The position numbers were made by a program, and so were the translations under genes. Of a stretch of DNA of 64,000 nt, positions 8,113 to 52,113 are shown piece after piece. The stretch lies in assembly GCA_049276635.1 (NCBI GenBank), contig JBASWU010000049.1:12981-76980 (forward strand), written 5' to 3'. The notes beneath the pieces are model-generated. The model did no database searches and was not told where the DNA came from. It worked only from the letters and a program-made list of their open reading frames with translations. Within the stretch, counting starts at the first letter, position 1; each line of letters opens with the position of its first letter. The DNA is from Solirubrobacterales bacterium (GTDB lineage Bacteria > Actinomycetota > Thermoleophilia > Solirubrobacterales > JACPNS01).

Positions 8113-8733
8113 ATGAGCGCCGAAACCACTATCGTTGTGGTTGATGACCACGAGGTGTTGCGCACAGGACTGCGCTACGTCCTCGAACCCCACAACATCC
8201 GGATTGTCGGTGACACCGGCGAACTCGACGAGGCGAAGGAACTCGTGGCAAGCCGCCGGCCGGACGTCGTCGTCGTGGACATCCGGCTCGCCGAGCACGA
8301 TGGCGTCGAGCTGATCAAAGACCTCTCACGCAAGCGATCTCGCGTGATCGCCTACAGCGGCTACAGCGACGACCGCCTGCTCGCCCGCGCGATCGACGCC
8401 GGCGCGATGGGATTCGTCGTCAAGGAAGGCTCGGCCGACGACCTTGTCGAGAGCATTCGCGCCGTTTCCAAAGGCCGTCACTGGCTTCCACGCCCGATCG
8501 GCGACGACGAGCTCAACGAGGCGATTCAGATGAAACTGCCGATGCTGTCTCGCCGCGAGCGTGAGATTCTCGGGCTGCTGTCGAAGGGCCGGTCAACCGA
8601 GGACGTCGCCGAGGAGCTGGCGCTCAGCGCACACACGGTGCGCACGCACGTGAAAAACGCGATGCGCAAACTCGAAGCGTCGACCCGTGCCCACGCGGTC
8701 GCGATCGCGCTGCGCGAACTTTCGATTCGGTAA
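8113..8733 (+). CDS. NarL/FixJ-family response regulator (REC + LuxR HTH)
   Basis: VVVDDHEVLRTGL...DVVVVDIRL receiver and a C-terminal LSRREREILGLLSKGRSTEDVAEELALSAHTVRTHV HTH. No histidine kinase is adjacent. Confidence 0.88.
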   Translation: MSAETTIVVVDDHEVLRTGLRYVLEPHNIRIVGDTGELDEAKELVASRRPDVVVVDIRLAEHDGVELIKDLSRKRSRVIAYSGYSDDRLLARAIDAGAMGFVVKEGSADDLVESIRAVSKGRHWLPRPIGDDELNEAIQMKLPMLSRREREILGLLSKGRSTEDVAEELALSAHTVRTHVKNAMRKLEASTRAHAVAIALRELSIR

Positions 8734-8782
8734 CCGCGACCGGCCGGCGGCGGCGGCGCTCGAATCCGGCGGCCGGCGCGGC

Positions 8783-9388
8783 CTACGCTTCGCCGTACTC
8801 GATCTCACGGATCACCGCAGCCGGCACGCCGGCCGCGATCGTTCGCGGGGGAATGTCAGATGTGACGACACTGTTGGCGCCGATGATCGCGCGATCTCCG
8901 ATCGTCACGCCGGAGGTGACGACGACGTTGACCCCGAGCCAGACGTTGTCGCCGATCCGGATCGGCCCCTTGCTGGTGAAGCCCTGGTAGGGAACCGGCG
9001 TCTCCGGGTCGTCGTAGCGGTGGGCGGCGTCGCCGATAAAACAGCCGTTGGCGATCATCGTGTGATCACCGATCGTGATCGAGTCCTGCGCGGCCAGCAT
9101 CACGCCAAAGTTCAGGAAGCAGTTTGCTCCGACCCGGATGTGGGCGCTGTCGAGATTCAGCGTGATCCAGCAGTGTGGCTCGAGGTGGGTGTTCTCGCCG
9201 ACCTCCAGCCTGCCGCGTTCGAATCCCTCAAGAATCTCACCGTTGATCGGCATCCGCGCAAAGGCACGCCTTGCCGCGAATTCGCGCGCGATCCTGCGCC
9301 GGCGCCACCAGCGGTCGTTGCGGTCATACCAGCGCCGGCGCCGGCGATAGAGCTTGCGATCGGCGTGGGAGAGCATCGACGGTGACAC
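8783..9388 (-). CDS. Hexapeptide-repeat (LbH) O-acetyltransferase
   Basis: Repeated [LIV]-G-x-x-x-x hexapeptides (IGDHTMIANGCFIGD, IGDNVWLGVNVVVTSGVTIGDRAIIGANSVV) and an R/W-rich N-terminus. Confidence 0.75.
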   Translation of the reverse strand: MSPSMLSHADRKLYRRRRRWYDRNDRWWRRRRIAREFAARRAFARMPINGEILEGFERGRLEVGENTHLEPHCWITLNLDSAHIRVGANCFLNFGVMLAAQDSITIGDHTMIANGCFIGDAAHRYDDPETPVPYQGFTSKGPIRIGDNVWLGVNVVVTSGVTIGDRAIIGANSVVTSDIPPRTIAAGVPAAVIREIEYGEA

Positions 9389-9427
9389 TAACCGGGCGGC
9401 CCGGCAAGCCGACGAGCCGGCCCGAAG

Positions 9428-12385
<2,958 letters not shown>

Positions 12386-12393
12386 CTGAATCG

Positions 12394-12399
12394 AGGATA
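12394..12399 (-). promoter_or_regulatory. Possible -10 hexamer in leaderless geometry for uvrA
   Basis: The minus strand reads TATCCT, then 8 nt, then ATG(12385). There is no Shine-Dalgarno sequence. The same TATCCT hexamer sits 7 nt before the hrcA ATG. Confidence 0.3.
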
Positions 12400-12482
12400 T
12401 GCGGAGCCGCGCCGATACCTCGCGATACCGCCCAGCCGCCGCTTGTCGTGGGGTTTGGCGATCATAGGGGTCGCGCCGGAGG

Positions 12483-12496
12483 GAACGTGTGTTCGA
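12483..12496. promoter_or_regulatory. SOS-box-like palindrome GAAC-N4-GTTCGA
   Basis: gGAACgtgtGTTCGA lies between the vapC stop and the uvrA start. It matches the Gram-positive/actinobacterial LexA core GAAC-N4-GTTC. The left flank is GG rather than TC. Confidence 0.35.
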
Positions 12497-12523
12497 TTCT
12501 GACGATCCGATCGCCTGTCGGCG

Positions 12524-12979
12524 CTACGTGACCGCCGGGTAGGTCGGGTCGGCCGGATCGACCGCGTCGATAAAGCCGAACTGCTCGAAGGCCGCGACGT
12601 TGTCCGTTAACAGCTTTGAGATTCCGAGTCGCCGCAGGCGCGCCGCCTGCAACGCGTCCGTGATCTGATCGCGGTCGAGTCCGTGGTCGCGGATCAGTGC
12701 GAAGGCGGCGACGAAGTCGTCGGCGTCGATCTCCGCGATCTCCACATTCGACGACGCGGCGAATGAGTTGCACAGCGCCACCGCCTCGTCGAGCGTCGGC
12801 GCGTTCTCGAACCGGCGCGGATCGGTGACGGTGTCGACGAAGTCGGTCAGCACGGTCGCGGTCAGCACCATCACGCCGTCGCCGAGCACCGTTTCGATCG
12901 CACGAATGCAGGCGTCCTGGCTCGGTCCGTGGCCGGCGTAAGCGCTCACCAGCACACCGCTGTCGACGGCGACCTTCAC
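12524..12979 (-). CDS. vapC: PIN-domain ribonuclease toxin (VapC-like)
   Basis: 151 aa. It has an N-terminal VDSGVL acidic residue and later ITDALQAA and LLTDNVAAF acidic positions typical of PIN. The GTG start overlaps the upstream stop (GTGA). Confidence 0.75.
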   Translation of the reverse strand: MKVAVDSGVLVSAYAGHGPSQDACIRAIETVLGDGVMVLTATVLTDFVDTVTDPRRFENAPTLDEAVALCNSFAASSNVEIAEIDADDFVAAFALIRDHGLDRDQITDALQAARLRRLGISKLLTDNVAAFEQFGFIDAVDPADPTYPAVT

Positions 12980-13170
12980 CCGCCGCCGCGCGGCCGCACG
13001 CCCGGGAACGGAGTCACGCGGTCGAGCCGGCGCACGCTGCCGATTCGCTCGTCGCGGTAACGGACCATCGCCTCGCGAATCAGGCTCGCGATCGACTTGC
13101 CGGTCCGCGCCGATTCGGCCCGAAACGCCTCGTAGTCATTTTCCGATACTGAAAGTGATATTGTTTTCAT
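12976..13170 (-). CDS. vapB: Ribbon-helix-helix antitoxin (VapB/CopG-like)
   Basis: MKTISLSVSENDYEAFRAESARTGKSIASLIREAMVRYRD gives an N-terminal beta strand plus two helices. An alternative GTG start at 13203 follows GGGAGGGAGG. An AT-rich imperfect inverted repeat ACTGATAT-N7-ATATCACT spans the ATG. Confidence 0.7.
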   Translation of the reverse strand: MKTISLSVSENDYEAFRAESARTGKSIASLIREAMVRYRDERIGSVRRLDRVTPFPGVRPRGGG

Positions 13171-13293
13171 ATCAGTAACGATATCGGTTTTCGCGGGAAG
13201 CACCAGCCGACCTCCCTCCCGGGTCAAACTGGGACGGCGATTGCGGATCTAGAACTCACGGGCGTTACGGAAATCTCACGCAGGAACGCAAAA

Positions 13294-13313
13294 GGCCCCG
13301 CTCCGGCGGGGCC
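13294..13313. terminator. Bidirectional intrinsic terminator downstream of uvrB
   Basis: GGCCCCGC-tccg-GCGGGGCC hairpin flanked by AAAA (5') and TTTT (3'). It lies 60 nt after the uvrB stop. Confidence 0.75.
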
Positions 13314-13372
13314 TTTTCATGTCAAGGTTCGATCCTGTTGTCCTCATTGGATCAAGAGGAGAAGGACCCCGG

Positions 13373-23904: not shown

Positions 23905-24198
23905 GCGAATGAGTTCCTTCCGGCGCCGATTCCGCGTATGACCGGCGAGGTTGGTGAATTCTACGGTCTCAGCAGTGAGTGCGGCAACGGTACCAAAAAT
24001 ATGCCCGTGTGAATTTACGACGGAGACATCGTCGGGTACGTGCCGTATGGAGCGGGGGTCGCGCTCGCCGGTTGTCGTGAAAAGCGGGCAAGTAGGCCGG
24101 AGGGTCCGGCCGAGGCCGGGCCCTGCGGGTCGAACCGGGCGACAGCTCCGCCGGCCGGTACGTACCGGCGGAACGTGTCGCGTGCCGGCCCCGTTGCG

Positions 24199-25653
24199 CT
24201 ATCGGGCGTTCACCCCTCGCTCGATTGCACGCCCGACCGCGATCAGCGTGGTTTCGGCGTGCGGCGCGGCAACGATCTGCAACCCGATCGGCAGGCCCGA
24301 CGGTGCCGGCGCGCTGGGCACCGACATCGCGGGAAAGCCGACAAAACTCCAGAGAATCGCGTTGCGCGACAAGATCGTCAGGTACTCGTCGGCGTCATCG
24401 ACGACCGGCGCGACGACGGGCACGGTCGGCATCACCAGCGCGTCGACGCCGGCGATGGCCGTTAGCATCTCCTCGCGCAGCCAGGCGCGGTAGCGCTGGG
24501 CGTCGATGTAGTCGGTGGCGAGTACCTCGTCGGCGGCGTCGAGCTGGTCCCGGACCTCCTCCCAGTACAGTGCGCGATCGTTGTGCAATCCGCGGTGAAA
24601 GGCAGCCGCCTCGCAGCGTGAGACGATCAGCCCGCAGGCGTTGGCACCGGCGAAATCAGGGTCGGCCGGGCGGTCCACGCCGACCAGCTCGGCACCGGCG
24701 GCGATCAGTAGGTCCAGCGCGAACTCGATCGACTCCTCGACTTCGGGCTCGGCCCCGTCCCACGCCGCGCGCGGAATTCCGATCCGCATCCCCTTGACGC
24801 CCGTGCCGACGCCTTCGGAGACGCGCGCACCGTCACGCAGGCAGTCGAGCATGATCGCCGCGTCGGCCACGCCGGGCGCGATCACACCGACGTGATCCAT
24901 AGTCCAGCTTAGGGGTACGACGCCGGCGGTCGGCACCGTGCCGTATGTCGGCTTCAACCCCACCACCCCGCTCAACGCCGCCGGCACACGCGAAGAGGCC
25001 CGTGTGTCGGTGCAGATCGAGGCGATTCCCATGCCGGTCGCGACCGCCACGGCGGATCCGCCGCTGGATCCGCCCGGGATGCGGGTGTCGTCGTGCGGGT
25101 TGCGCGACTGCGGCGAGGTGACGCCGAGCGCGAACTCGTGGGTCGCGACCTTGCCGAGTATCACCGCGCCCGCGTCGCGCAGGCGCCGGACCGCCCAGGC
25201 GTCGTGACTCGCCCGATGCTCGTACGCCAGCGAGCCGGCTCGCGTCGTGGCGCCCTTCACGTGAATGACATCCTTTACGGAGATCGGAATTCCATGCAGC
25301 GGGCCTCGATGGCGACCCGCCTTGAGTTCGTTGTCGAGCTTGGCCGCCTGCTCGCGCGCCTCGACCTCCATGATTTCGACGAAGGCGAACAGCCGGTCGT
25401 TGTCTTTTTTGATCGCCTCAAGCGAGCGCTCGACCAGATCGGCGGCAGTCACCTCGCCGCCGTCGATCAGGTGGCGGGTCGCGCCGATCGTTCCCAGCAA
25501 CGGGGCCCCGCCGGGACTGCCCGGCTCTTCGCCCGGCGCGATCGCCTCGCCCGGCCAGACATCAAAGCCGGGGCGTCGTTCGAGATCGTCGTTGCGCCAA
25601 CCCTTGAGATGCTCAAGTGCCCAGGCGAAAGCATTTGTGGCAACGCTCGTCAT
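24199..25653 (-). CDS. Amidase-signature (AS) family amidase
   Basis: GIPISVKDVI (catalytic Lys), [12 protein letters not shown] (Ser-cisSer). About 60 aa of N-terminal extension. Last gene of the operon, 10 nt after the hydrolase stop. Confidence 0.88.
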   Translation of the reverse strand: MTSVATNAFAWALEHLKGWRNDDLERRPGFDVWPGEAIAPGEEPGSPGGAPLLGTIGATRHLIDGGEVTAADLVERSLEAIKKDNDRLFAFVEIMEVEAREQAAKLDNELKAGRHRGPLHGIPISVKDVIHVKGATTRAGSLAYEHRASHDAWAVRRLRDAGAVILGKVATHEFALGVTSPQSRNPHDDTRIPGGSSGGSAVAVATGMGIASICTDTRASSRVPAALSGVVGLKPTYGTVPTAGVVPLSWTMDHVGVIAPGVADAAIMLDCLRDGARVSEGVGTGVKGMRIGIPRAAWDGAEPEVEESIEFALDLLIAAGAELVGVDRPADPDFAGANACGLIVSRCEAAAFHRGLHNDRALYWEEVRDQLDAADEVLATDYIDAQRYRAWLREEMLTAIAGVDALVMPTVPVVAPVVDDADEYLTILSRNAILWSFVGFPAMSVPSAPAPSGLPIGLQIVAAPHAETTLIAVGRAIERGVNAR

Positions 25654-25663
25654 CGCGCGGCCC

Positions 25664-26371
25664 CTAAACCGTCTCGAGTGCCGCGAGCAGTTTCTCGCTG
25701 TCGCTGACGGAGCCGAACACGCCGCCCTGCATCTTGACCATCTTCAGCGCGGCCTCGTAGTTGCCGTAATCGGTGGCGCCGGTGCAGTCGGAGAGCAGCA
25801 GACACTCGTAGCCGATGTCGTTGCCCTCGCGCATCGTAGTGTGCACGCAGACATCGGTGGTGATTCCGGTGAAAATCAGATTCTCGATCTTCTTCGAGCG
25901 CAGGATCAAGTCGAGATTGGTCGCGCAGAACGCGCCCTTCCCGGGCTTGTCGATGACGATCTCGCCGTCCACCGGATAAAGCTCCTCGACGATGTCCCAG
26001 CCCGGTTCACCGATTACAAGGATGCGGCCGCAGGGACCGGCGTCGCCGATCCCGGCGCCCATCTGCTTCGAGCGCCAGAGCTTGTTCGGCGGACAGTCCG
26101 AGAGATCCGGCTGGTGGCCTTCGCGCGTGTGCACGACGGTCAGGCCGAGTTCGCGCCAGCGCGCCAGCACTTTTTGCGTCGCCGGAATGCCAGCGCGCGT
26201 CAGGCCGAGGTCGTAACCCATGTGATCGACGTACCCGCCGGGGCCGCAGAAGTCGGTCTGCCAGTCGATCAGGATCAACGCCGTGCGCTGGAGGTCGAGG
26301 TTCTGGTTGTAGGGCCAGTCGTAGGGATCGCCGGCGACGGAGATCGCGGCGGAATCGGTGGCGGCGGTCAT
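25664..26371 (-). CDS. Isochorismatase-fold cysteine hydrolase, biuret-hydrolase (BiuH)/triuret-hydrolase-like
   Basis: [76 protein letters not shown] and [12 protein letters not shown]. The Asp-Lys-Cys triad is intact. I place the start at ATG 26371, overlapping the upstream stop (ATGA). Assignment to the BiuH subfamily is from memory of that family's motifs. Confidence 0.75.
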
Positions 26372-26991
26372 TCGGTCTCTCCTTTTTGGGAAACGGCGGA
26401 CGCGGTCGTGGTGGAGTTGACGAAATAGCACGCCTCAATCAAAGCGTCGCTGGTGCCAACGGCACCGAAGATTCCGCCGGACATCAATATCTGTGAGATC
26501 GAGGCCTTCTGCAGCTCCGGGTCGTACGCCACGCACGCGTCCTCCAGAAAGAGGCATTCAAAACCAAGATCATTGGCCCGGCGCAGTGTCGAGTGAACGG
26601 CGATCTCCGTCGGCCAGCCGGCAAACGCCAGCTTCTCGATCCCGTTTGTGCGCAAGACGAGATCGAGATTGCCGCCGAGGAAGGCGTTCGCCGTCGGCGC
26701 TTCGATCACCATGTCGCCGGGCGCCGTCTTCGGCAGCGAACCGCCGCCGCAACTGATCCAGATCACCGCGGCCCCCAGCTCGCGCAGCGGGCCGGCGAGT
26801 TTCGACGCCGCCGTCAAGGCCATCTCGCGCGATCGCTCGTCGCCCTCGCGGCCCGTCGCGGGCCCCGAGACCACCACGAGCGCAAAGCTCGCGGTGGTCA
26901 ACTCGCCGTCGTAGGGCCACGGGTACGGCCGGGAACCGGCGACCGCGATCTCGCCCTCTGTTGTGGCTTTGATCGCGGCCGCCGCGCTCAT
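26368..26991 (-). CDS. Isochorismatase-fold paralogue lacking the catalytic triad (predicted pseudoenzyme)
   Basis: It shares [22 protein letters not shown] and [13 protein letters not shown] with its neighbour. At the triad positions it has VVVSGP for LIDWQ (Asp lost), IEAPTANAF for IDKPGKGAF (Lys lost) and TEIAVHS for TDVCVHT (Cys to Ala). Confidence 0.7.
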
Positions 26992-28118
26992 GAGGTCGGG
27001 ATCTTTCCGGTCACGCCCTCGACGAGGTAGTCGGTCGATTCGAGATCGGTCGGGCTCGGCGATTCGCCGTCCGGGATCTTGACCGCACCAGCCTGGTCTT
27101 TGATCGGACCGGTGAAGGGCTTGAAGTCGCCTGACTTCATCTCTTTTTTCTTGGCTTCGATCTCGTCCTGAACGTCTTCGGGAACGGCCGAGCCGAACGG
27201 CGCGAGCTGAATGATCTCGCTGTCGGCAAAGCCGGCGCGGTACATCGCGTCGTACTTGGAGCCCTTCCAGTCACCGGCGGCGATCGTGTCGGCCATGTCG
27301 GTGTAGAGCGGTCCCCAGTTCCACACCGACCCGGTCAGCCAGCCCTTGGGCGCCAGCGATGAGGCGTCGGCGTGGTAACCAACCGACATGATGCCCTCGC
27401 GCTCGGCCGTCTCGACGATCGTCTTGGTGCAGTCCTGGTGCTGGCTGATCACGTCGACATCCTTGTTGATCAAGGACTTCGCGGCCTCTGCCTGCTTGCC
27501 GGGGTCGCACCAGTTGTTGGTGAAGACCACCGTGGTGGTGACGTCGGGGTTGACCGACTGCGCACCGAGCTGGAACGCGTTGATGTTTAGCAGCGTCTGC
27601 GGAATCGGCACGGCGACGACGTAGCCGAGCTTGTTGGTCTTGGTCTGCTTGCCGGCGGCGATACCGGTGAGGTACTGCGCCTCGTAGATACTGCCGAAGA
27701 ACGTGCCCAGGTTGTCGGCGGTCTTCAGGCCGCCCTGGTGCATGAACGTCACGTCGGGGTGCTTTGCGGCGACTTCCAGCGCGGGCTCGAGGTGGCCGTA
27801 GCTGGTCGGGAAAATGATCGTCGCGCCGTCCTTGATCATCTTCTCCATCACTCGCGAGGCCTCTGATGTCTCGGGCACGTTCTCGGCCTGAAGGACCTTG
27901 TAGCCGGCCTTCTCAACCTCGAGCGAGCCTTCGTAGGCCGCCTGGTTGTAGCCGTAGTCGTTCTTCGGTCCGACGTAGAGGAAGCCGACCGTCGGCTTGT
28001 CGCCGGAGGCGGAGTCGCCCGAGTTTGAATCCGAGCTGGAGCCACAAGCGCTCACACCGACCGCGGCTACCAAGCCGAGGGCCATGAGCAGCAGCCACTT
28101 AACCGTCCAATTACGCAT
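26988..28118 (-). CDS. BMP-family (basic membrane protein / PnrA-like) ABC substrate-binding lipoprotein
   Basis: Lipobox LVAAVGVSAC and S/D-rich linker, then VGFLYVGPKNDYGYNQAAYEG...IIFPTSYG...VGYHAD, typical of the Bmp family. An AAAGGAAG RBS lies upstream. Confidence 0.85.
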   Translation of the reverse strand: MRNWTVKWLLLMALGLVAAVGVSACGSSSDSNSGDSASGDKPTVGFLYVGPKNDYGYNQAAYEGSLEVEKAGYKVLQAENVPETSEASRVMEKMIKDGATIIFPTSYGHLEPALEVAAKHPDVTFMHQGGLKTADNLGTFFGSIYEAQYLTGIAAGKQTKTNKLGYVVAVPIPQTLLNINAFQLGAQSVNPDVTTTVVFTNNWCDPGKQAEAAKSLINKDVDVISQHQDCTKTIVETAEREGIMSVGYHADASSLAPKGWLTGSVWNWGPLYTDMADTIAAGDWKGSKYDAMYRAGFADSEIIQLAPFGSAVPEDVQDEIEAKKKEMKSGDFKPFTGPIKDQAGAVKIPDGESPSPTDLESTDYLVEGVTGKIPTS

Positions 28119-28182
28119 TCTGAACTTCCTTTCGATGAACTACATGGAGTTGGGGCAGGTCTCGCTACGGCGCGACCGGTCC

Positions 28183-29094
28183 TTACGTTCCGCCCGGCGC
28201 GAACACGGCCTTGAGGCCGGCGGGCATTTTCTGAGCCTGTTTGCGACTCGCGATCGCGAGCACGACGAGGGTCAGAACGTAAGGAGTCATTCCGAGCAGG
28301 AACGCGGAGATGCTCAGGCCCTCGGCCTGAAGCTGAAGCTGAAGGCTGACCGCCAGTCCGAAAAGCAACGCGCCGAGCGCGGCGCGGATCGGCAGCCAGG
28401 AGGCGAAGATCACCAGAGCGACGGCGACGAAGCCGCGGCCGACGGTGACGTCTTCGACCCAGTTGAGCGTGGAGGCCAGCACCAGCTGGGCGCCGCCCAT
28501 GCCGGCGAGCGCGCCGCCGGAGGTGACGGCGATATAACGCACCTTGCGCGGGGAGTGACCGTAAGCGAAGACGACGTCGGGATTCTCGCCGGTAGCGCGG
28601 AGGATCAGCCCCCAGCGAGTCTTCTTCATGAACCACCACAGCGCCGGACCGAGCAGCAGCGCGCCATAGGTGAGCAGGTCATAGTTGAACAGCACGTTGC
28701 CGAGGAACGGGATATCGCTCAACAGCGGTATCGCGACCGGCTCGAAGCCGGTGATCTTCGCGTCGACGAAGCTCGTGCCCAGCGCCGCCGTCAGGCCGAG
28801 TCCGAGGAACGTGATTCCGAGGCCGCTGGCGAGCTGGTCGGCCCGGCGGTCGATCACCAGATAGGCGTGCAGCAAGGCAAGCAGACCGCCGAAGGCCAGC
28901 CCGGCAAGCGCGCCGATGTACGCCGCACCCGTCCACGACGTGACCGCGAACGCACCGAGTGCTCCGGCCAGCATCGAGCCTTCGGTTCCGAGGTTGACGA
29001 TTCCCGAGCGCTCCGAGACCGTCTCGCCCTCCGCGGCGTAGATCACGCAGGCGCCGTAGCGCACCGCGCCGGTCAGCAGGTTCTCGATGAACAT
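28183..29094 (-). CDS. ABC transporter permease (BMP-type system)
   Basis: 303 aa from [11 protein letters not shown]. It is polytopic and carries NLGTEGSMLAGA. The 619-aa track ORF is an upstream artefact. The ATG overlaps the preceding TGA by 1 nt (TGATG). Confidence 0.85.
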   Translation of the reverse strand: MFIENLLTGAVRYGACVIYAAEGETVSERSGIVNLGTEGSMLAGALGAFAVTSWTGAAYIGALAGLAFGGLLALLHAYLVIDRRADQLASGLGITFLGLGLTAALGTSFVDAKITGFEPVAIPLLSDIPFLGNVLFNYDLLTYGALLLGPALWWFMKKTRWGLILRATGENPDVVFAYGHSPRKVRYIAVTSGGALAGMGGAQLVLASTLNWVEDVTVGRGFVAVALVIFASWLPIRAALGALLFGLAVSLQLQLQAEGLSISAFLLGMTPYVLTLVVLAIASRKQAQKMPAGLKAVFAPGGT

Positions 29095-30128
29095 CAGCCG
29101 CCCGGTCCTTTGAGCGCGGCCGGGCGCTGAGCGAGAACGAACAGGACGATCGCGGCCATCAACACGTAGACCGAGGAGGCAGGCAGCCCGAAATCGATCT
29201 GCAGGTTGTCGCCGTAGACCGAAATCGCGGCCAGCAGCACGGCCGCCGACGGGATCCAGGCGGTACGGTGCCCGACCATCCAGCTGCAGAGGAAACCGAT
29301 GTAGCCGAAACCGGCGGCCATGTCGGATCGAACGCGGATCTCGGTACCGGAAAGCTCGATCGAGCCGGCGAGCCCGGCGATCGCTCCGCCGAGCAGCAGA
29401 GCGACCAACACGGTCTTGCCGACCGGGATGCCGCCGCGGCGCGCGGCCTCCGGATTGCCGCCGACGACCTTCGCTTTGAAGCCCCAGCGCGAGTGCTCGA
29501 TCAACAGCCAGATCCCGACCGCCACCGCGATCGCGATCACCAGCCCGAAGTGCACCCCGTAGTCGCCGAAGTGCGGAAGCCGCGCCGATTCGCTGATCTC
29601 CGGCGCGATCGCGAATCCGAATGACTCCGGATCCTTGAGCGCGTCGTTGACGAGAAAGCCCAGCAGCAGCGCGGCCACGTAGTTGAGCAGCAGAGTCGAG
29701 ATCGTCTCGTTGACGTTGAACAGGTTCTTTAGGAACGCCGCGATACCGGCCCACAACAGACCGCCGAGCAAGCCGGCCGCGAGGATCGCGGGAAGCATCA
29801 CGACGATCGGCAGCGCGTCCTCGACGACGAACGCGAAGCCGCCGGCGGCGGCCGCGCCGATCAAGAGCTGGCCTTCGCCGCCGACGTTGATCAGACCCGC
29901 ACGCGCCGGAAGCGCGACGGCCAGCGCGGTGAGTATGAACGGAGTCGCGCGCACCAGCACGTCGGGCTGAGAAATCGCGAAGACCGGCAGGATCATCCAG
30001 AGCAGCAACGGCAGTGCGATCGGCGAGGCGATCCTGAACCACCTGTTTTGCGGGATGTGGGCGCGCGGGTCGAACGAACGCTTGGCCGGCGGCGCGCCTT
30101 CGGGAAAGGCGAGTTCGGGCGCCGTCAC
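29094..30128 (-). CDS. ABC transporter permease (BMP-type system)
   Basis: Polytopic, with the [13 protein letters not shown] motif. The GTG start at 30128 follows GGAGG and overlaps the ATPase stop (GTGA). Confidence 0.8.
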
Positions 30129-31684
30129 GACGCCTCCCGGCCGAGCATCATCGCGCCGATCTCGCCGCGCGTGGTTTCGGACGGTTTGAGATCGCCGGCG
30201 AGCCTGCCGCCGTGCAGCACCGCGATCCGGTCGGAGACCGCGAAGAGCTCGTCTAGATCCTCGGAGACAAAGAGCACGGCGGCGCCTTCTTGGGCGCGCG
30301 CGAAGAGCAGTTCGTGGGTGGTCCGGACGCTGATCAGATCGAGTCCGCGTGTCGGGTAGCAAGCAACGACGACGCCGGGCTCGCGGGCGAGCGCGCGGAC
30401 GATCATCAGCCGCTGGATGTTGCCGCCCGACAGCGAATCGACACGGCGCGACGGCTCGGCCAGGCCGATCGCCCGCGCCGACGGCAGCGCGGCGGTCCGC
30501 TCATGAACCGACGGCCAGTGATAGCCAATGCGCGTCCTCGGCGGATCGATCCCACCGATCGCCATGTGCTCGGCGATATTGAGGCCGGGAACGACCTCCA
30601 TCGCGATCGGGTCCTCGGCCATACAGGCAACGCCCTCGGCGATCGCCTCGGTGACGTGCTTGTTCTCGATGTAGACGCCGCTGATCGCGATCCGGCCGTT
30701 GAAAACCGGGCGCAGACCTTGCATCGCCTCGGCAAGCTCGCGCTGGCCACCGCCGGAGACGCCGGCGATGCCGATCACCTCTCCGCGCTCGGCGACGAGA
30801 CTGAACTCGTCGATCGCCGGCAGGCCGTTGTCGCCGTGCACCGTGATGTGTTCGAGCATCAGCGCCGGGCCGTCGACGTGCGCGACGATGTTCGGTCGAT
30901 GTGGCAGGTCGGGCACCGATTGACCGACGACCGCCTCGATCAACTCGCCGTCGGTCATCGCCGGCAGATCGTCGGACCGCATCGCGACCTTGCCCTGACG
31001 CAACACCGTGACACGGTCGCAAACGGCGCGCACGTCGGGGATCTTGTGGGTGATGATCGCCAGCGCCATGCCCTGGTCGCGCAGATCGCGGATCACGTTC
31101 ATCAGGCCGTCGACCTCTTGCGGCGCGAGCAGGCTGGTCGGTTCGTCGAGAATCAGCACCTTGGCGCCGCACATCAGGACCTTGAGGATCTCGGCCTGCT
31201 GGCGCTCGCTCATCGAGAGTTCGTCGATCGTACGGTAGGGGTCGACGCTCATGCCGTACTTGGCCGCGAGGGCCTGGAGTTCGTCGGCGATCTTTTTCTG
31301 GTCGAGCATGAAGCCGTCGCCGGGGAGCGCGAGCGCAATGTTCTCGAGCACGGTGAGCGCCGGGATCAGGCGGAAATCCTGGAATACAAGGCCGATGCCG
31401 GCGGCGCGGGCCTTGCCGGGGGAATCGATCACGATCGGCTCGCCGTCGACCAGAACTTCGCCCTCGTCGGGCACGTTAACCCCGTAGAGCGACTTGGCGA
31501 GTGTCGACTTGCCGGCGCCGTTTTCGCCGAGGATCGCGTGAACTTCGCCGGGAAACAGCTCGAGATCGACCGAGTCATTTGCGACCAGAGTGCCGAAACG
31601 CTTGGTCAAGCCCTTGACCTGGATCGTCGCGGCCTCGGCCTCGGTTGCGGGCGCCGCGGATTCAGTGACCAGTCCGGTGCTCAT
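30125..31684 (-). CDS. ABC transporter ATP-binding protein, tandem ABC domains
   Basis: 519 aa. Walker [10 protein letters not shown], signature LSMSERQQ, a Walker B ILDEPT, and a second degenerate domain with LSGGNIQR. Confidence 0.9.
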
Positions 31685-32430
31685 TGGTCGAGCTCTTCGA
31701 CGTCGAACATGCGCGCGAGCATCGCGCCGACTCGCTGCTCGACGACCCGCGCGCTGCGGTCGATGTGCACCCGCATCAGCGCGGCCGCGGCGTCAATCTC
31801 GCCGGTCAGGATCGCTTCGACGAGTTCGAGGTGTTCATCGATCGTGGTCTTGATGCGCGCGCCGGTCGTGAAGTCGTGGACGCGAAGGATACGGATCCGC
31901 TCGTTGATGTCGCGTAGGTATCGAACGGCGGGCTGGTTGCCGGCGGCGGCGGCGAGACGCTCGTGAAAAGCCTCGTCGGCGTGAACGAAATCCGGCGTCT
32001 CCAGCCCGGACGCGCCGCGCTTGTACCGCTCACCGAGATCGACCCAGACGTCGCGGAGATCCGTGAGTTTGCCGGTGTCGCCGGAGGCGGTCGCGCGACG
32101 AACCACGAGATCTTCGACCACCACGCGGACCTCGTAGAGCTCGCGGATCGTGCTCGCCTGCGGCGGCTGCGGCGTGATCCCGCCGTTTGCGTGCTTGACC
32201 ACGTGCCCGTCGGCCTGTAGGCGGTGTAGGGCTTCGCGTACCGGAGTGCGGCTGCAGCTGAAGCGATCAGCGAGATGTTCCTCGACCAATCGCTGGCCGT
32301 ACGGGAATTTTCCGAGCAGGAGATCCTGGCGGACCCCCTGATAGACGCGCTCGGCGATCGAGCGCGCGCCGCCAACGCCACCTCCGTCTGTGTGCAGCGT
32401 TGTATCCAGGTTTGTAGACACCGAGATCAT
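31681..32430 (-). CDS. GntR-family transcriptional regulator (FadR/FCD subfamily)
   Basis: N-terminal wHTH ([31 protein letters not shown]) plus a helical FCD-like C-domain. Its stop overlaps the ATPase start (ATGA), making it the first gene of the operon. Confidence 0.85.
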
Positions 32431-32564
32431 GGAAAGGCAAGCTATCCGCGGGCGACCGGCGTTACGTGGTCACGATGTACAAAATTCCGCGGTGGTTGTT
32501 GGCCACACGTGAGAAGTCGCCGGCCGGTGCGCATCGGCGAGCCCGCGGGGCCGGCAAGCGGCGG

Positions 32565-36654: not shown

Positions 36655-37434
36655 CTAGCCGAGCGAAGCGACCTCCGTCGCCTGCAGGCGAGCGCCGGCA
36701 AGGGGCACGCTGACCCCGTATCCGGCGCCGGTCACCGCGGTGTGCGCGGTGGCGCAGGTGATGACGATCGCCGGCGGCGGCGTCGCGACCGCCGTCAGGT
36801 CGACCGCGAACTGCACCGGAATGTTGATGTTGCCGAAGAACAGGGGATTGGCTCCCTGATCGGCGAGCGCGTTCGCCTTCCCGGTCGCCAGCACGTTGTC
36901 GTCCTGGTCGTATGCGGTGCAGACCCCCTGGAACGAGTCTGCCGCGTCGTCGGCGGTCATCTGCAGGTTGACGGATCCGTTGACCACGTACATCCCCGCC
37001 GGCAGAGACTTTGTCAGCACCGGAAGCTCCGCGCCAATGTCGTTCACGAGGTCGACCTGCGCCGCGTTGCTCTCGGCGAACGCGGCGACCGCGCCCGTCG
37101 CTCCGGTCGCGCCGGTCGCGCCGGTCGCTCCGTCTGCTCCGTCTGCACCGGTTGCCCCGGCCGCCCCGGTCGCACCCATCGCCCCGTTTGCCCCGGCCGG
37201 GCCGGTCGCGCCGGTCGCGCCGGCTTTCGCGTACTGCCTGGCATAGGAACTGGCGTACTTCTTGACCAGTTTGAGCTGCGCTTTCGTGAGCGCCGACCTA
37301 CTAGCGGATACCCCGGTTTCGCTGGACGCGCCGGCTACCGCGAACGCGGATGTCACGCCGATCGTCGCGAGCGCCGCTGCGACACACGCCACGACCAGCT
37401 TCACGCGGCCTGCCCCGAAAGTGTTCTTGAACAT
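36655..37434 (-). CDS. Secreted collagen-like (G-X-Y) repeat protein
   Basis: 259 aa from MFKNTFGAGRVKLVVACVAAALATIGVTSAFAVAGA (signal peptide), with a GGGAGG RBS. It has 14 uninterrupted G-X-Y triplets (GATGATGPAGANGAMGATGAAGATGADGADGATGATGATGATG) and then a C-terminal globular domain of about 145 aa. The 437-aa track ORF is an upstream artefact. Confidence 0.8.
   Translation of the reverse strand: MFKNTFGAGRVKLVVACVAAALATIGVTSAFAVAGASSETGVSASRSALTKAQLKLVKKYASSYARQYAKAGATGATGPAGANGAMGATGAAGATGADGADGATGATGATGATGAVAAFAESNAAQVDLVNDIGAELPVLTKSLPAGMYVVNGSVNLQMTADDAADSFQGVCTAYDQDDNVLATGKANALADQGANPLFFGNINIPVQFAVDLTAVATPPPAIVITCATAHTAVTGAGYGVSVPLAGARLQATEVASLG
37093..37221 (-). repeat. Imperfect 9-nt tandem repeat encoding the G-X-Y tract
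   Basis: The plus strand shows reiterated ccggtcgcgccggtcgcgccggtcgctcc... units. These are codons for Gly-Ala-Thr and variants, aa 72-114 of the protein. Confidence 0.8.
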
Positions 37435-37584
37435 GTTGGCCTCCCTGCCCTGGGGGGGACGCGCTGTCCCCCCGAACCTCGAATTGAAAAGACGCTCAAA
37501 GGTAGTCGCAGATCCGGCTCGCCGCCACCCCGATCTGGACGAATCGCAGGATTTCGCCCGGGGAGACATAACATGATCTGAGAC

Positions 37585-39054
37585 GTGGCAACCACCCCTT
37601 CCCCATCCGCCAGCTACAGCATCACCCTGACCGTGGCGATCGACAATCGCGAGGGCACACTGCCGCGCGTCACCGGGGCGATCAGCGAGTCCGGCGGCGA
37701 GATCACGGCGATCGACATCGTCGGGTCGCAGGAGGAGATGACGGTTCGCGACATCACCGTCAGCGCGCGCAATCAGGACCATTACCGCTCGATCATCGGC
37801 GCGCTGACCAACGTGCGCGGCGCGAAGCTGATCGAGACCACGGATCGCACCTTCAATATGCACCAGCACGGCAAGATCGAGATGCACAACAAACATCCCG
37901 TCAAGACTCGCGACGATCTCTCGATGGCCTACACCCCCGGCGTCGCCCGCGTCTGCATGGCAATCCACGAAAACCCCGAGAAGGCCTTCAAGTACACGAT
38001 CAAGGCCAACACGGTCGCCGTCGTAAGCGACGGTACCGCCGTACTCGGCCTCGGCGACATCGGGCCCGAAGCGGCGATGCCGGTGATGGAGGGCAAGGCG
38101 ATGCTCTTCAAGGAGTTCGCCGATGTCGACGCCTTCCCCATTTGCCTCGACACCAAGGACCCCGACGAAATCGTTCGCGCGGTCGAGCTGATGGCCCCGA
38201 CCTTCGGTGGCATCAATCTCGAAGATATTTCCTCGCCACGCTGTTTCGAGATCGAGCGCCGGCTCAAGGAATCACTGGACATCCCCGTCTTTCACGACGA
38301 CCAGCACGGCACCGCCGTCGTGGTCATCGCCGCGCTGCTCAACGCGTCGAAGGTGATCGACAAGCCGATCTCACAGATGCGAGTGCTGATGCTCGGGCTC
38401 GGAGCGGCCGGCATCGCGGTCACCGAGATGCTCGAATCGGCCGGCGTCAACGACATCATCGGCTGCGACCGCAAGGGCGCGCTGCACACCGAGCGCGAGG
38501 ACTGGGAGACGCTCGGGCCGGTCAAGCGGTGGTACGCGGAGCACACCAACAAGGACAAGGTCTCCGGTGCGCCCGACGAGGTCATCGAGGGCATCGACCT
38601 GCTGATCGGGCTTTCGGGCCCGGGCGTGATCCGCGCCGAGTCGCTGGCGAAGATGAATGCCGACCCGATCGTCTTCGCGATGGCCAACCCAACCCCGGAG
38701 GTCATGCCCGAGGAGGCCGCTCCCTTCGTGCGGATAATGGCCACCGGGCGCAGCGACTATCCCAACCAGATCAACAACGTTTTGTGCTTCCCCGGGATCT
38801 TCCGCGGCGCGATGGACGCCCGCGCGACCAAGATCACCGACGAGATGAAGATGGCGGCGGCCGAGGGCATCGCCGCGTGCGTCCCCGAGAACGAGGCCTC
38901 AGAGGACTACATCATCCCCTCCGTTTTCAACCGCGACGTCGCCAAGGAAGTCGCCAAGGCCGTCGAACATGAGGCCGCCCGCGGCGGCGTCGCCAAGCTT
39001 GAAGACGACTCCGGCGCGACGCTCGACCTGCCGGCCGTCGGCAGGCGTCGTTAG
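37585..39054 (+). CDS. NAD(P)-dependent malic enzyme with N-terminal ACT domain
   Basis: GTG start. An ACT-like segment of about 85 aa (SITLTVAIDNREGTLPRVTGAISESGGEITAIDIV...) is followed by DLSMAYTPGVARVC, VVSDGTAVLGLGDIGPEAAMPVMEGKA and GINLEDI malic-enzyme motifs. Confidence 0.9.
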   Translation: MATTPSPSASYSITLTVAIDNREGTLPRVTGAISESGGEITAIDIVGSQEEMTVRDITVSARNQDHYRSIIGALTNVRGAKLIETTDRTFNMHQHGKIEMHNKHPVKTRDDLSMAYTPGVARVCMAIHENPEKAFKYTIKANTVAVVSDGTAVLGLGDIGPEAAMPVMEGKAMLFKEFADVDAFPICLDTKDPDEIVRAVELMAPTFGGINLEDISSPRCFEIERRLKESLDIPVFHDDQHGTAVVVIAALLNASKVIDKPISQMRVLMLGLGAAGIAVTEMLESAGVNDIIGCDRKGALHTEREDWETLGPVKRWYAEHTNKDKVSGAPDEVIEGIDLLIGLSGPGVIRAESLAKMNADPIVFAMANPTPEVMPEEAAPFVRIMATGRSDYPNQINNVLCFPGIFRGAMDARATKITDEMKMAAAEGIAACVPENEASEDYIIPSVFNRDVAKEVAKAVEHEAARGGVAKLEDDSGATLDLPAVGRRR

Positions 39055-50664: not shown

Positions 50665-52113
50665 CTAAGTGAGCGCGGGGCGAATTTCCGTCCACGGCCG
50701 CGCGCGCTCGATCTGGCCGCAGAGCGAGAACAACGCCTCTTCACCAGCCGGACGGCCGATCAGCTGCACGGAAAGCGGCAGACCGTCGCCGGCAAGGCCC
50801 ATCGGCAGCGACACCGCCGGCTGACCCGACAGGTTGGCGATGGCCGTGAACGACGTGAACTCCGCCGCTTTGGCGAACGCCGCCATTCCGGTGTTGGTGT
50901 CGATTTCGCCGATCCTCACCGGTCGCGTGTTGAGCACCGGCGTGAGCACCGCGTCGTAGCCGTAGGTGCTCGCGACGATCACCCGCGTAAAGGCCTGGGC
51001 GGTGGTGTTGGTGTTGATCCAATCGAGCGCGGTGATGCTTTGTGCCAGCTCCCACATCTCCCAGGTCAGCGGCTCGACCAGCTCCTCGGACGGCTCGCGC
51101 CCGGTGACGACCCCCGCGAACGAGGTGAGCGTCGAGATCCAGCCGGCGAAGAGCTTTGTGAACAACATCATCATCTCCGGGTTATCCCACGGGATCGTGG
51201 TTTCTTCGACCTCGTGACCGAGTGATTCGAGCAGCGCCGCCGCATCGCGAACCTGCCGCTCGTGAAGTGGATCTACGGGGAGGTCGAGTGGGGGCTTCAC
51301 CGTGAACCCGATCTTCAGCCTGCCCGGGTCGCGGTCGACCGCCTCGGCGAACGGCGCCGACGGTGGCGGCGCCCAGTTGGCGTCGCCGGGCATGTACCCG
51401 GCCAACAGGTCGAGCGACGCCGCGACGTCGATCACGCTGCGCGAGAGCATGCCCTCGGCGGTCAGCGGACTCTCGCCCAGCAGCGGCGCGGAACTTACGC
51501 GGTTGCGCGATGCCTTGAATCCGACGAGTCCGCAGCAGGCGGCCGGGATCCGCAGCGAACCGCCCCCGTCGTTGCCGTGCGCGATCGGAACGATGCCCGC
51601 CGCCACCGCCGCGGCGGAACCTCCCGACGAACCGCCCGGTGTGCGATCGGTGTCGAACGGATTGCGCGCCGGGCCGAAGCGCAGCGGTTCGGTGACCGGC
51701 ACGATCCCCATCTCGGGAGTCTTGGTCTTGCCGATGATCACGAAACCGGCGTCCTTGAGCCGCGCGACCGCGCTGGAGTCGAAGTCCGGCACGAAATCGC
51801 CAAACAAGTTCGACCCGGCGGTGAAGGGGTAGCCGGCGAGAAAGACGTTGATGTCCTTGATCGCCGTCGGTACGCCGGCGAAGGGTCGCGGGTCGCCTGG
51901 TTTGACGGCGTCGGCGGCGGCGAGCGCGCGCTGCTCATCGATCACGGTGAAGGCGCCCAGCCGTGGCTCCAGAGCGCCGGCGCGCGCCAGCGACAGCTCG
52001 GTCAGTTCACGTGCGCTGACCTCTCCGGACCGGACCGTCGCGGCGAGCTCGTGGGCCGGCTTGAACAGCAGTTGCGCGTCGGTCATCCGGACCGGGAGTA
52101 TTACAGGTGACAC
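50665..52113 (-). CDS. Amidase-signature family amidase (second copy in window)
   Basis: [10 protein letters not shown] and [14 protein letters not shown] motifs. An alternative start at 52086 (MTDAQLLF) is possible. Confidence 0.85.

Follow-up and report, generated by a model that had tools for sequence, protein, structure and literature searches.

Biuret (H2N-CO-NH-CO-NH2) is a urea by-product that is rich in nitrogen. Its metabolism is mostly independent of cyanuric acid, and the biuret hydrolase BiuH commonly co-occurs with the triuret hydrolase TrtA (PMC7948467). In nitrifiers the biuH gene is found beside bmpA-nupABC and gntR; where the nitrifiers are ammonia-oxidising archaea, the place of the allophanate hydrolase gene atzF is taken by a gatA-like amidase that is uncharacterised (PMC12625717). 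The characterised BiuH enzymes, which are isochorismatase-like hydrolases (IHLs), are active as homotetramers without a partner; their Gln215 is donated in trans to the neighbouring subunit, where together with Val218 it gates the substrate tunnel (PMC5806882). Here, an eight-gene operon with a BiuH-type hydrolase was analysed in a Solirubrobacterales bacterium (assembly GCA_049276635.1, contig JBASWU010000049.1, positions 12,981 to 76,980 of the forward strand). This whole stretch of 64,000 nucleotides is referred to as the window, and all positions are those of the 64-kb window unless a locus is named.

The operon (24199-32430, minus strand) is best read as a GntR-controlled system for the uptake of biuret and its use as a nitrogen source, in which a catalytically dead paralogue of BiuH serves as a partner subunit of the active enzyme; the probability of this reading is put at about 0.72. 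The substrate is most simply biuret itself. In the proposed mechanism, a lipoprotein of the nucleobase-binding branch of BMP proteins would capture biuret outside the cell, and two permeases and a double-domain ATPase would import it. BiuH would then deamidate biuret to allophanate, a step well supported by sequence, and an amidase-signature (AS) amidase, judged by its position, would remove the second amide nitrogen of allophanate, leaving a product that falls apart to CO2 and NH3. The paralogue would be translated just before BiuH through an ATGA coupling and assemble with it as a non-catalytic subunit, and the GntR protein probably represses the operon at a TGTACA palindrome until substrate or product is present. 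The eight genes, in order of transcription, are:

31681-32430, minus strand: gntR, GntR-family regulator of the FadR/FCD subfamily, 249 residues (Pfam GntR 57 bits, FCD 84 bits)
30125-31684, minus strand: ABC ATPase with two nucleotide-binding domains, 519 residues (Pfam ABC_tran in two stretches)
29094-30128, minus strand: ABC permease 1, 344 residues, GTG start (Pfam BPD_transp_2, 114 bits)
28183-29094, minus strand: ABC permease 2, 303 residues (Pfam BPD_transp_2, 115 bits)
26988-28118, minus strand: BMP-family substrate-binding lipoprotein, 376 residues, lipobox VSAC (Pfam Bmp, 155 bits)
26368-26991, minus strand: triad-less BiuH paralogue (pseudo-BiuH), 207 residues (Pfam Isochorismatase), predicted non-catalytic partner subunit of BiuH
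25664-26371, minus strand: biuH, biuret amidohydrolase, 235 residues (Pfam Isochorismatase; NCBIfam NF050097 equivalog)
24199-25653, minus strand: AS amidase, 484 residues (Pfam Amidase, 285 bits), predicted to hydrolyse allophanate as a substitute for AtzF

The biuret hydrolase and its triad-less paralogue

The hydrolase encoded at 25664-26371 passed the NCBIfam BiuH equivalog model NF050097 with 393.9 bits against a cut-off of 370, matching the profile over its full length (positions 1-221). Compared with solved relatives, it scored 359 bits with BiuH from Rhizobium leguminosarum bv. viciae 3841 (PDB ID: 6AZO; 69% identity over 221 residues) and 348 bits with BiuH from Rhodococcus sp. Mel (6XJM), whereas TrtA gave 194 bits, RutB 97 bits and nicotinamidases at most 38 bits. 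The residue numbering coincides with that of the Rhizobium enzyme. The triad Asp36-Lys142-Cys175 is intact, and of the active-site and pocket residues listed in PMC5806882 the hydrolase also keeps Gln38, Phe41, Tyr47, Lys145, Thr171, Asp173, Val174, Gln215 and Val218. Sequence therefore gives good support to its assignment as a BiuH orthologue, which would convert biuret to allophanate and ammonia. An identity as RutB, nicotinamidase or guanylurea hydrolase was ruled out by the scores against both the models and the structural relatives. An earlier annotation made from the DNA letters alone, the sequence-only reading, had called this protein BiuH-type, and the equivalog score, the identity to 6AZO and the presence of every named active-site residue bear this out. 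Placement in a non-biuret clade, which would have spoken against that reading, did not result: the hydrolase falls in the BiuH group, with scores to BiuH well above those to TrtA and RutB. The motif blocks listed at the time were all found in the protein, one of them beginning with MGAGIGD and not, as had been written, with IGAGIGD.

The gene directly upstream encodes an IHL in which the positions of BiuH Asp36, Lys142, Cys175 and Gln215 are occupied by Ser, Ala, Ala and Ser, in agreement with the earlier description of it as a catalytically dead paralogue. On the BiuH model it reached 107.6 bits against the cut-off of 370, with only profile positions 123-220 matching. About 30 residues of the fold are lost, and the deletion includes the lid and insertion region, which in BiuH closes the pocket. 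The AlphaFold2 model of the paralogue has a predicted local distance difference test score (pLDDT) of 92.4 and a predicted template modelling score (pTM) of 0.89; its top Foldseek matches are the BiuH structures 6AZQ and 6XJM, with template modelling scores of 0.71-0.75, followed by TrtA and RutB. As modelled, the paralogue is an isochorismatase-like fold from which the catalytic triad is gone.

The same loss is found throughout a large family. A word-indexed search returned 174 homologues of the paralogue; among the 120 listed, Asp36 and Lys142 are absent from all and Cys175 from nearly all, and every one has Ser in place of Gln215. When 1.84 billion representatives were searched exhaustively with a profile, 232 matches at E <= 1e-30 were obtained. 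Among the 128 single-domain proteins in the top 150 of these, none keeps Lys142, three keep Asp36 and four keep Cys175, and Ser stands at the Gln215 position in 126. The dead family comprises at least 125 clusters at 50% identity and spans Actinomycetota and Chloroflexota. An alignment of 35 members (36-66% identity to the window paralogue) contains 21 invariant columns, which lie in an N-terminal PYxWP motif (common to BiuH but not TrtA), an NDxGYEC core and a MSGGIFGAV block, and are concentrated in the last. On the MSGGIFGAV helix, Ser171 and Ile174 of the paralogue, both invariant in the dead family, replace Gln215 and Val218 of BiuH. The family also resembles TrtA in having a Glu two residues ahead of the position of the lost Cys, and its former triad positions hold varied small residues with no new conserved polar set.

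A literature search for an isochorismatase pseudoenzyme gave nothing relevant within the limited paper collection searched, and the conserved dead family seems to be previously undescribed. In source annotations, many triad-less proteins and fusions of dead paralogue and BiuH are named 'biuret amidohydrolase', 'nicotinamidase-related amidase' or 'cysteine hydrolase'; pseudo-BiuH is counted as an active enzyme by automated annotation, which bears on how biuH genes should be annotated. The dead paralogue, a side detail in the sequence-only reading, is the most interesting part of the locus. A separate observation concerns Candidatus Manganitrophus sp. GAC4 (locus L045, 8043-8696; also protein P0105), in which the IHL in the slot of the dead paralogue, between the BMP gene and BiuH, keeps Asp36 and Lys142 but has Ala for Cys175 and Ser for Gln215. 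Its score to BiuH is 222 bits, and the next BiuH gene appears fragmented. IHLs of this 'DKAS' type may represent an intermediate stage in the evolution of the pseudo-BiuH family.

To place the operon among its relatives, a profile of the dead paralogue was scanned over one genome per species, which gave 80 loci, and the eight window proteins served to map these by their domains. In 20 loci from Actinomycetota, gntR, ATPase, permease, permease, BMP, dead IHL and BiuH follow one another in this order, and an amidase usually comes next. The carriers are Solirubrobacterales, Acidimicrobiia, Gaiellaceae, Egibacteraceae, Cellulomonas fimi HM71, Nocardioides fonticola JCM 16703, a Streptomyces, Microbacteriaceae and Demequinaceae. 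The gntR gene opens the operon in at least 15 sister loci. Three more metagenomic contigs with the core order, one of them from a Dehalococcoidia (Chloroflexota), were retrieved by exact-protein look-up. Because the gene order recurs in 20 independent genome loci, the arrangement in the window is far beyond chance; a neighbourhood comparison across Actinomycetota had been suggested from the sequence, and the block does recur.

The corresponding loci in Proteobacteria, Nitrospira and others have the transporter and regulator genes surrounding BiuH and a second, active IHL, TrtA. The proteobacterial order is BMP, permease, permease, BiuH, ATPase, TrtA and gntR, and the second IHL of Herbaspirillum huttiense is essentially crystallised TrtA (457 bits). 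A cluster in Micromonospora, Dactylosporangium and Pseudonocardia contains gntR, AtzF, BiuH and a TrtA-like gene. None of the loci examined has both a dead IHL gene and a TrtA gene.

Some of these loci hold additional genes. A carbon-nitrogen hydrolase of the nitrilase superfamily (PF00795) lies between the transporter genes and BiuH in L077 (6763-7983) and L082 (2019-3032) and is seen in many proteobacterial loci as well as in the Dehalococcoidia contig; gaps of about 1 kb stand at its position in L015, L016, L023, L042, L051, L055 and L056. In one locus with the dead paralogue and BiuH (L084, 852-1346) an AtzH-like gene (PF11533) is located just 5' of gntR. In another such locus, L083, a divergent cluster (8302-13338) encodes urea-carboxylase-related CT_A_B/CT_C_D, an allophanate hydrolase (Amidase and AH_C) and two DUF1989 genes. 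Outside the bacteria, eukaryotic algae (green algae, dinoflagellates, haptophytes and pelagophytes) have tandem two-domain proteins of 450-550 residues, such as P0183 (Chlamydomonas reinhardtii CHLRE_10g448500v5) and about 60 others, including P0166, P0171, P0194, P0212 and P0230. Their N-terminal domain matches BiuH best (362 bits) and their C-terminal domain TrtA (269 bits), with both triads intact. These proteins are BiuH::TrtA fusions and suggest that algae can degrade both triuret and biuret.

The link between the dead paralogue and BiuH is close. In all 23 loci examined the paralogue is directly upstream of BiuH, whose triad is intact, and in most cases its stop codon overlaps the BiuH start codon. 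The two also occur as fusion proteins of 400-480 residues, which form about 55 clusters at 90% identity, in addition to a Gaiellaceae locus (L010). Single-ORF fusions (ORF, open reading frame) were apparent in many loci and were discarded as mostly long spurious ORFs in GC-rich DNA; L010 is the only true one among the genome loci. The 83 BiuH sequences that have a dead partner show Cys93, Leu98 and Tyr205, whereas the 57 that have none (Actinomycetes with TrtA among them) show Leu, Arg and His at these sites. No other position separates partnered from partnerless BiuH, and position 205 is on the Gln215 helix.

In BiuH and TrtA, the helix equivalent to MSGGIFGAV enters the active site of the neighbouring subunit, and its Gln binds the distal amide (PMC5806882, PMC7948467). 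Since the paralogue lacks an active site and is best conserved in the very helix by which a neighbour's site is completed, it is most simply a partner subunit, and the recurrent fusions with BiuH point to a physical contact of the two. The prediction of a hetero-oligomer is drawn from gene adjacency, translational coupling and these fusions, and the partnership might serve stability, gating or altered specificity. More tentatively, and with a rather low probability, the paralogue might complete the BiuH active site in trans, with the invariant Ser and Ile of its helix in place of Gln215 and Val218, and so re-tune acceptance or turnover. If correct, this would be an undescribed diversification of the isochorismatase-like hydrolases that replaces a separate TrtA in Actinomycetota and Chloroflexota. 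A partner that remodels the active site would be a clear case of pseudoenzyme-controlled specificity.

Operon organisation, importer and second amidase

All eight ORFs are on the minus strand, and five of their junctions are coupled by overlap and two are short gaps. The overlaps, as read from the sequence, are ATGA between gntR and the ATPase gene (31681-31684), GTGA between the ATPase and permease 1 (30125-30128, with GGAGG 5 nt 5' of the GTG), TGATG between the two permeases (a 1-nt overlap at 29094), ATGA between the BMP gene and the paralogue (26988-26991) and ATGA between the paralogue and BiuH (26368-26371, with AAGGAG upstream). A gap of 10 nt separates BiuH from the amidase, and one of 64 nt (28183 to 28118) separates permease 2 from the BMP gene, which has a good AAAGGAAG ribosome-binding site. 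The coordinates, the eight-gene minus-strand layout, the five overlaps and the 10-nt gap match the sequence-only reading; its account of genes linked by overlaps holds for these five junctions and misses the 64-nt gap, which it did not list. Two further features flank the coding region:

32473-32484, minus strand: candidate GntR operator TTTTGTACATCG; its palindrome TGTACA (32476-32481) lies 46-51 nt upstream of the gntR ATG
24097-24172, minus strand: GC-rich inverted repeats 3' of the amidase stop, a possible transcript end with weak evidence

GntR-family operators include a GT..AC type, and on this ground the site is a candidate GntR operator. The sequence TTTTGTACATCG occurs once in the window, with 0 occurrences expected by chance, and similar TGTACA or TGTATACA palindromes are also located upstream of gntR in L001, L003, L011, L039 and L070. 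The inverted repeats (24147-24172 and 24097-24128) have no T-tract. A scan for consensus promoters and terminators found none above background and left the repeats uncalled, a result that is uninformative for high-GC Actinomycetota. The flanking genes, DNA polymerase I (PolA) upstream and ETF-ubiquinone oxidoreductase (ETF-QO) downstream, were considered as pathway members and rejected as unrelated to the operon. Elsewhere in the window, a 437-residue ORF (36655-37968, minus strand) matches the collagen triple-helix repeat (PF01391, 31 bits), which is unusual in bacteria.

The importer is of the BMP type, as proposed from the sequence and seen in the Pfam Bmp score of the binding protein; the best NCBIfam match of the ATPase is a BMP-type 'B6' ABC ATPase, below its cut-off. 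Among solved structures, the binding protein is closest to AtzT (6PI5, guanine-bound, 269 bits) and 3S99, with PnrA-type nucleoside binders more distant. AtzT binds guanine at 0.11 uM, and 3S99 was modelled with adenine (PMC6834077). The AtzT pocket was mapped onto the window protein and 50 BiuH-linked BMP homologues from all phyla. In the window protein the aromatic sandwich of Tyr45 and Trp194 is kept together with Ser97 and Asn169 (AtzT numbering), whereas the guanine contacts Glu165, Asn218 and Asn220 are replaced by Gln, His and Asp. His and Asp at positions 218 and 220 are present in 50 of the 50 homologues and Gln at position 165 in 45; in five loci, all alphaproteobacterial, position 165 is Ser or Thr and Tyr45 is replaced by Trp. 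The pocket reads Y-S-x-Q-N-W-H-D in 44 of 50 BiuH-linked BMP proteins and W-S-H-S/T-N-W-H-D in five. This signature appears to define a distinct specificity group tied to biuH, and the predicted ligand is biuret or a close planar, amide-rich ureide such as triuret.

The 484-residue amidase reached the cut-off of none of the curated NCBIfam models, the best being a generic amidase subfamily, indoleacetamide hydrolase and AtzE. The AtzF models TIGR02713 and NF006043 were missed with 203 bits against 511 and 216 against 487, respectively, and the models for AtzE (1-carboxybiuret hydrolase), TIGR02715 and NF006631, with 249 against 425.75 and 260 against 461 bits. The best solved relative is an uncharacterised Thermus amidase. 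The AS catalytic residues Lys127, Ser196 and Ser220 are kept in window-type and AtzF-type groups alike. In 17 AtzF-type proteins a Tyr and an Arg eight residues apart are invariant, presumably the substrate-site pair Tyr299/Arg307 of the Granulibacter allophanate hydrolase, and the window type has invariant Asn338 and Arg346 in those columns. Further features of the window type are an Arg, invariant within it, next to the nucleophile (TDTRAS) and an extension of about 55 residues at the N-terminus. The extension, which had been called unusual, is real and is partly conserved among the homologues.

The slot after BiuH is occupied by a TIGR02713-passing allophanate hydrolase of 577-629 residues in L005, L009, L039, L043 and L046, and by a window-type amidase of 480-510 residues in L001-L003, L007, L013, L024, L029, L082 and L084 (BiuH is present in L007 and L013 too). 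In L083 an allophanate hydrolase with the C-terminal domain is located in the adjacent divergent cluster. As sister loci hold a true allophanate hydrolase after BiuH, the window amidase probably does that job, and from its position it is predicted to hydrolyse allophanate in place of AtzF. It had been described as an AS enzyme without the C-terminal domain of allophanate hydrolases, and the protein indeed ends at residue 484. The missing domain is no obstacle, because the isolated 50-kDa amidase domain of AtzF stays active (PMC3944691).

Related amidases were noted at several places. Window-type amidases stand in tandem after BiuH in L002 (3022-6065; 640 and 577 bits against the window amidase) and L003 (9290-12351; 629 and 574 bits), where the window has one. 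A second kind of cluster, in Solirubrobacter pauli (L081, 8171-13691), has in this order an AllG-like gene, a GntR/FCD regulator, a window-type amidase, an IHL with 285 bits on the BiuH model (below the cut-off) and a 530-residue protein without a family match; it may point to a related pathway that draws on this amidase family. The possibility that the window encodes a second allophanate hydrolase was considered and rejected: the only other amidase, 25 kb away (50665-52113, minus strand, 482 residues), is of the generic AS type, reaches no NCBIfam cut-off and is only distantly related to the operon amidase (98 bits). No other IHL or AtzF gene is present within the 64-kb window.

Several features had led the sequence-only reading to conclude that no known pathway fits, a conclusion that does not hold. 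The link of biuH with BMP, gntR and gatA-like genes and the independence from cyanuric acid are published, and the slot of the amidase holds AtzF in sister loci. The absence of a cyanuric acid hydrolase or barbiturase is no misfit in a metabolism that is mostly independent of cyanuric acid (PMC7948467), nor is the short amidase, given the true allophanate hydrolase in its slot in sister loci. The BMP importer had seemed out of place through its association with nucleosides or purines; its binding protein is not of the nucleoside type, having the nucleobase-binding AtzT as its nearest solved relative, and its pocket signature is common to BiuH-linked BMP proteins. The general idea of a dedicated uptake and hydrolysis system for a ureide or biuret-like compound stands, and biuret is the simplest candidate for what had been left as an unidentified substrate.

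Weighing of alternative explanations

A number of points speak against a biuret operon with a BiuH partner subunit. For every operon member the protein function is predicted by sequence comparison. Whether partnered or fused, BiuH retains a Gln215 of its own in all cases, which would be unexpected if it paired exclusively with the dead subunit across the Gln-swapping interface; characterised BiuH is active as a homotetramer without a partner (PMC5806882). An AlphaFold2 single-chain model of a natural fusion (pLDDT 87.6, pTM 0.69) has both domains well folded and a disordered linker, and this pTM is suggestive at most. No BMP-family protein is known to bind biuret. The amidase is below every allophanate-hydrolase cut-off, is without the AtzF C-terminal domain of about 110-150 residues (its match stops at profile position 411 of 563) and has Asn where allophanate hydrolases have an invariant Tyr. 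Finally, in Solirubrobacter pauli a 59%-identical amidase stands beside AllG and a sub-threshold BiuH-like IHL, and the amidase family may act on another ureido-carboxylate such as oxalurate.

A doubtful alternative assumes a longer or substituted ureide as the substrate, such as triuret, carboxybiuret or a biuret with an N-substituent. It would be hydrolysed at a composite site of BiuH and pseudo-BiuH, with Ser171 and Ile174 lengthening or re-gating the pocket and so replacing TrtA. Such a site would build on the donation of Gln215 in trans and its gating of the tunnel with Val218 (PMC5806882), and in TrtA the equivalent Gln is about 2.7 A further out, held by Ile205, which admits triuret (PMC7948467). 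The Ser and Ile of the dead family at those positions and its TrtA-like Glu would fit a lengthened or re-gated pocket; the mutual exclusion of dead IHL and TrtA genes is in line with it, and the fusions force a 1:1 stoichiometry. However, BiuH keeps Gln215 everywhere, and its domain is otherwise like the biuret-specific enzymes, three positions apart. The product of triuret hydrolysis would, in addition, still need an ordinary biuret site.

It is unlikely that the paralogue has an independent job and merely travels with biuH, whether it binds or decarboxylates carboxybiuret or allophanate (in the role of TrtB/AtzH) or acts as a chaperone or sensor. Its strong conservation and well-folded model would suit such a role, as would the lack of a TrtB/AtzH-like gene in the window operon (one precedes gntR in L084), and the invariant Glu129 and Asp151 could in principle be catalytic. 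Yet nearly all of its invariant residues are BiuH core residues, it has lost the lid and insertion region over the pocket, no conserved polar set has arisen at the old triad sites, and the repeated fusions to BiuH speak for a physical link.

A transporter for purine or nucleoside salvage, as automatic annotation has it, next to unrelated amidohydrolases, with a nucleobase or its oxidation product as substrate, is very improbable. The BMP members PnrA, AtzT and 3S99 do bind nucleosides or purines (PMC6834077), and purine-degradation products have been discussed as biuret sources (PMC12625717); but every BiuH-linked homologue has other residues at the sites through which AtzT contacts guanine, no purine-catabolic gene is present in the operon or its flanks (PolA, ETF-QO), and BiuH is embedded in the transporter operon across phyla. 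That the paralogue is a recently inactivated duplicate being lost, as the loss of all three catalytic residues and about 30 fold residues could suggest, is effectively refuted by conservation, since at least 125 divergent clusters across Actinomycetota and Chloroflexota keep an intact ORF with 21 invariant columns and maintain translational coupling and fusions.

Comparison with described systems

Biuret and triuret are contaminants of heavily applied urea fertiliser and are toxic to plants. BiuH is under development as a plant trait and selection marker (PMC7700744, PMC13155557), and an Actinomycetota version with a dead-enzyme partner and a different second amidase bears on the gene set for heterologous expression. 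The shared BMP pocket signature offers a testable candidate for the first biuret-specific ABC transporter, and the cultured carriers Cellulomonas fimi HM71 and Nocardioides fonticola JCM 16703 make the variant directly testable.

At the level of single proteins, the window hydrolase shares the triad, the substrate-contacting residues and the numbering of the BiuH structures 6AZO and 6XJM and passes the same equivalog model. It differs in having Cys93, Leu98 and Tyr205 instead of Leu, Arg and His, and whereas those enzymes are homotetramers on their own, BiuH in the window and in at least 23 other loci is preceded by or fused to a triad-less paralogue. The binding protein has the cluster B-I fold family, aromatic sandwich and Ser of AtzT from the pADP-1 atzRSTUVW operon (6PI5; PMC6834077); AtzT holds guanine through Glu165, Asn218 and Asn220, in contrast to the Gln, His and Asp of the window protein. 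With AtzF (TIGR02713; 4GYR, 4ISS and 4CP8) the amidase has in common the AS fold, the Lys/cis-Ser/Ser triad, the slot after biuH and one Arg, presumably of the substrate site. The C-terminal domain and the invariant Tyr are peculiar to AtzF, and the TDTRAS Arg and the N-terminal extension of about 55 residues to the window amidase.

For the predicted pairing of a hydrolase with a non-catalytic protein there is a precedent nearby in metabolism. In the cyanuric acid pathway of Pseudomonas sp. ADP, the catalytic amidase AtzE has a small non-catalytic partner, AtzG (PMC7948467, PMC6219798), which is likewise a dedicated protein encoded beside the enzyme. AtzG is, however, unrelated to the AtzE fold, whereas the partner in the window is a degenerate enzyme paralogue, so that the analogy is functional only.

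The nearest described operons are the bmpA-nupABC/biuH/trtA/atzF clusters of Herbaspirillum, ammonia oxidisers, comammox Nitrospira and archaea (PMC7948467, PMC12625717). The window operon agrees with them in the transporter family, the pocket signature, the regulator family and the BiuH core, and, like their archaeal members with a 'gatA-like' amidase, has another amidase instead of atzF. It departs from them in that their proteobacterial representatives have a different gene order, their second IHL is an active TrtA where that of the window is dead, and the window amidase is not AtzF. The kind of pathway is already known; the predicted pseudo-BiuH partner, which is the new element, and the non-AtzF amidase mark the locus as a previously undescribed variant of it.

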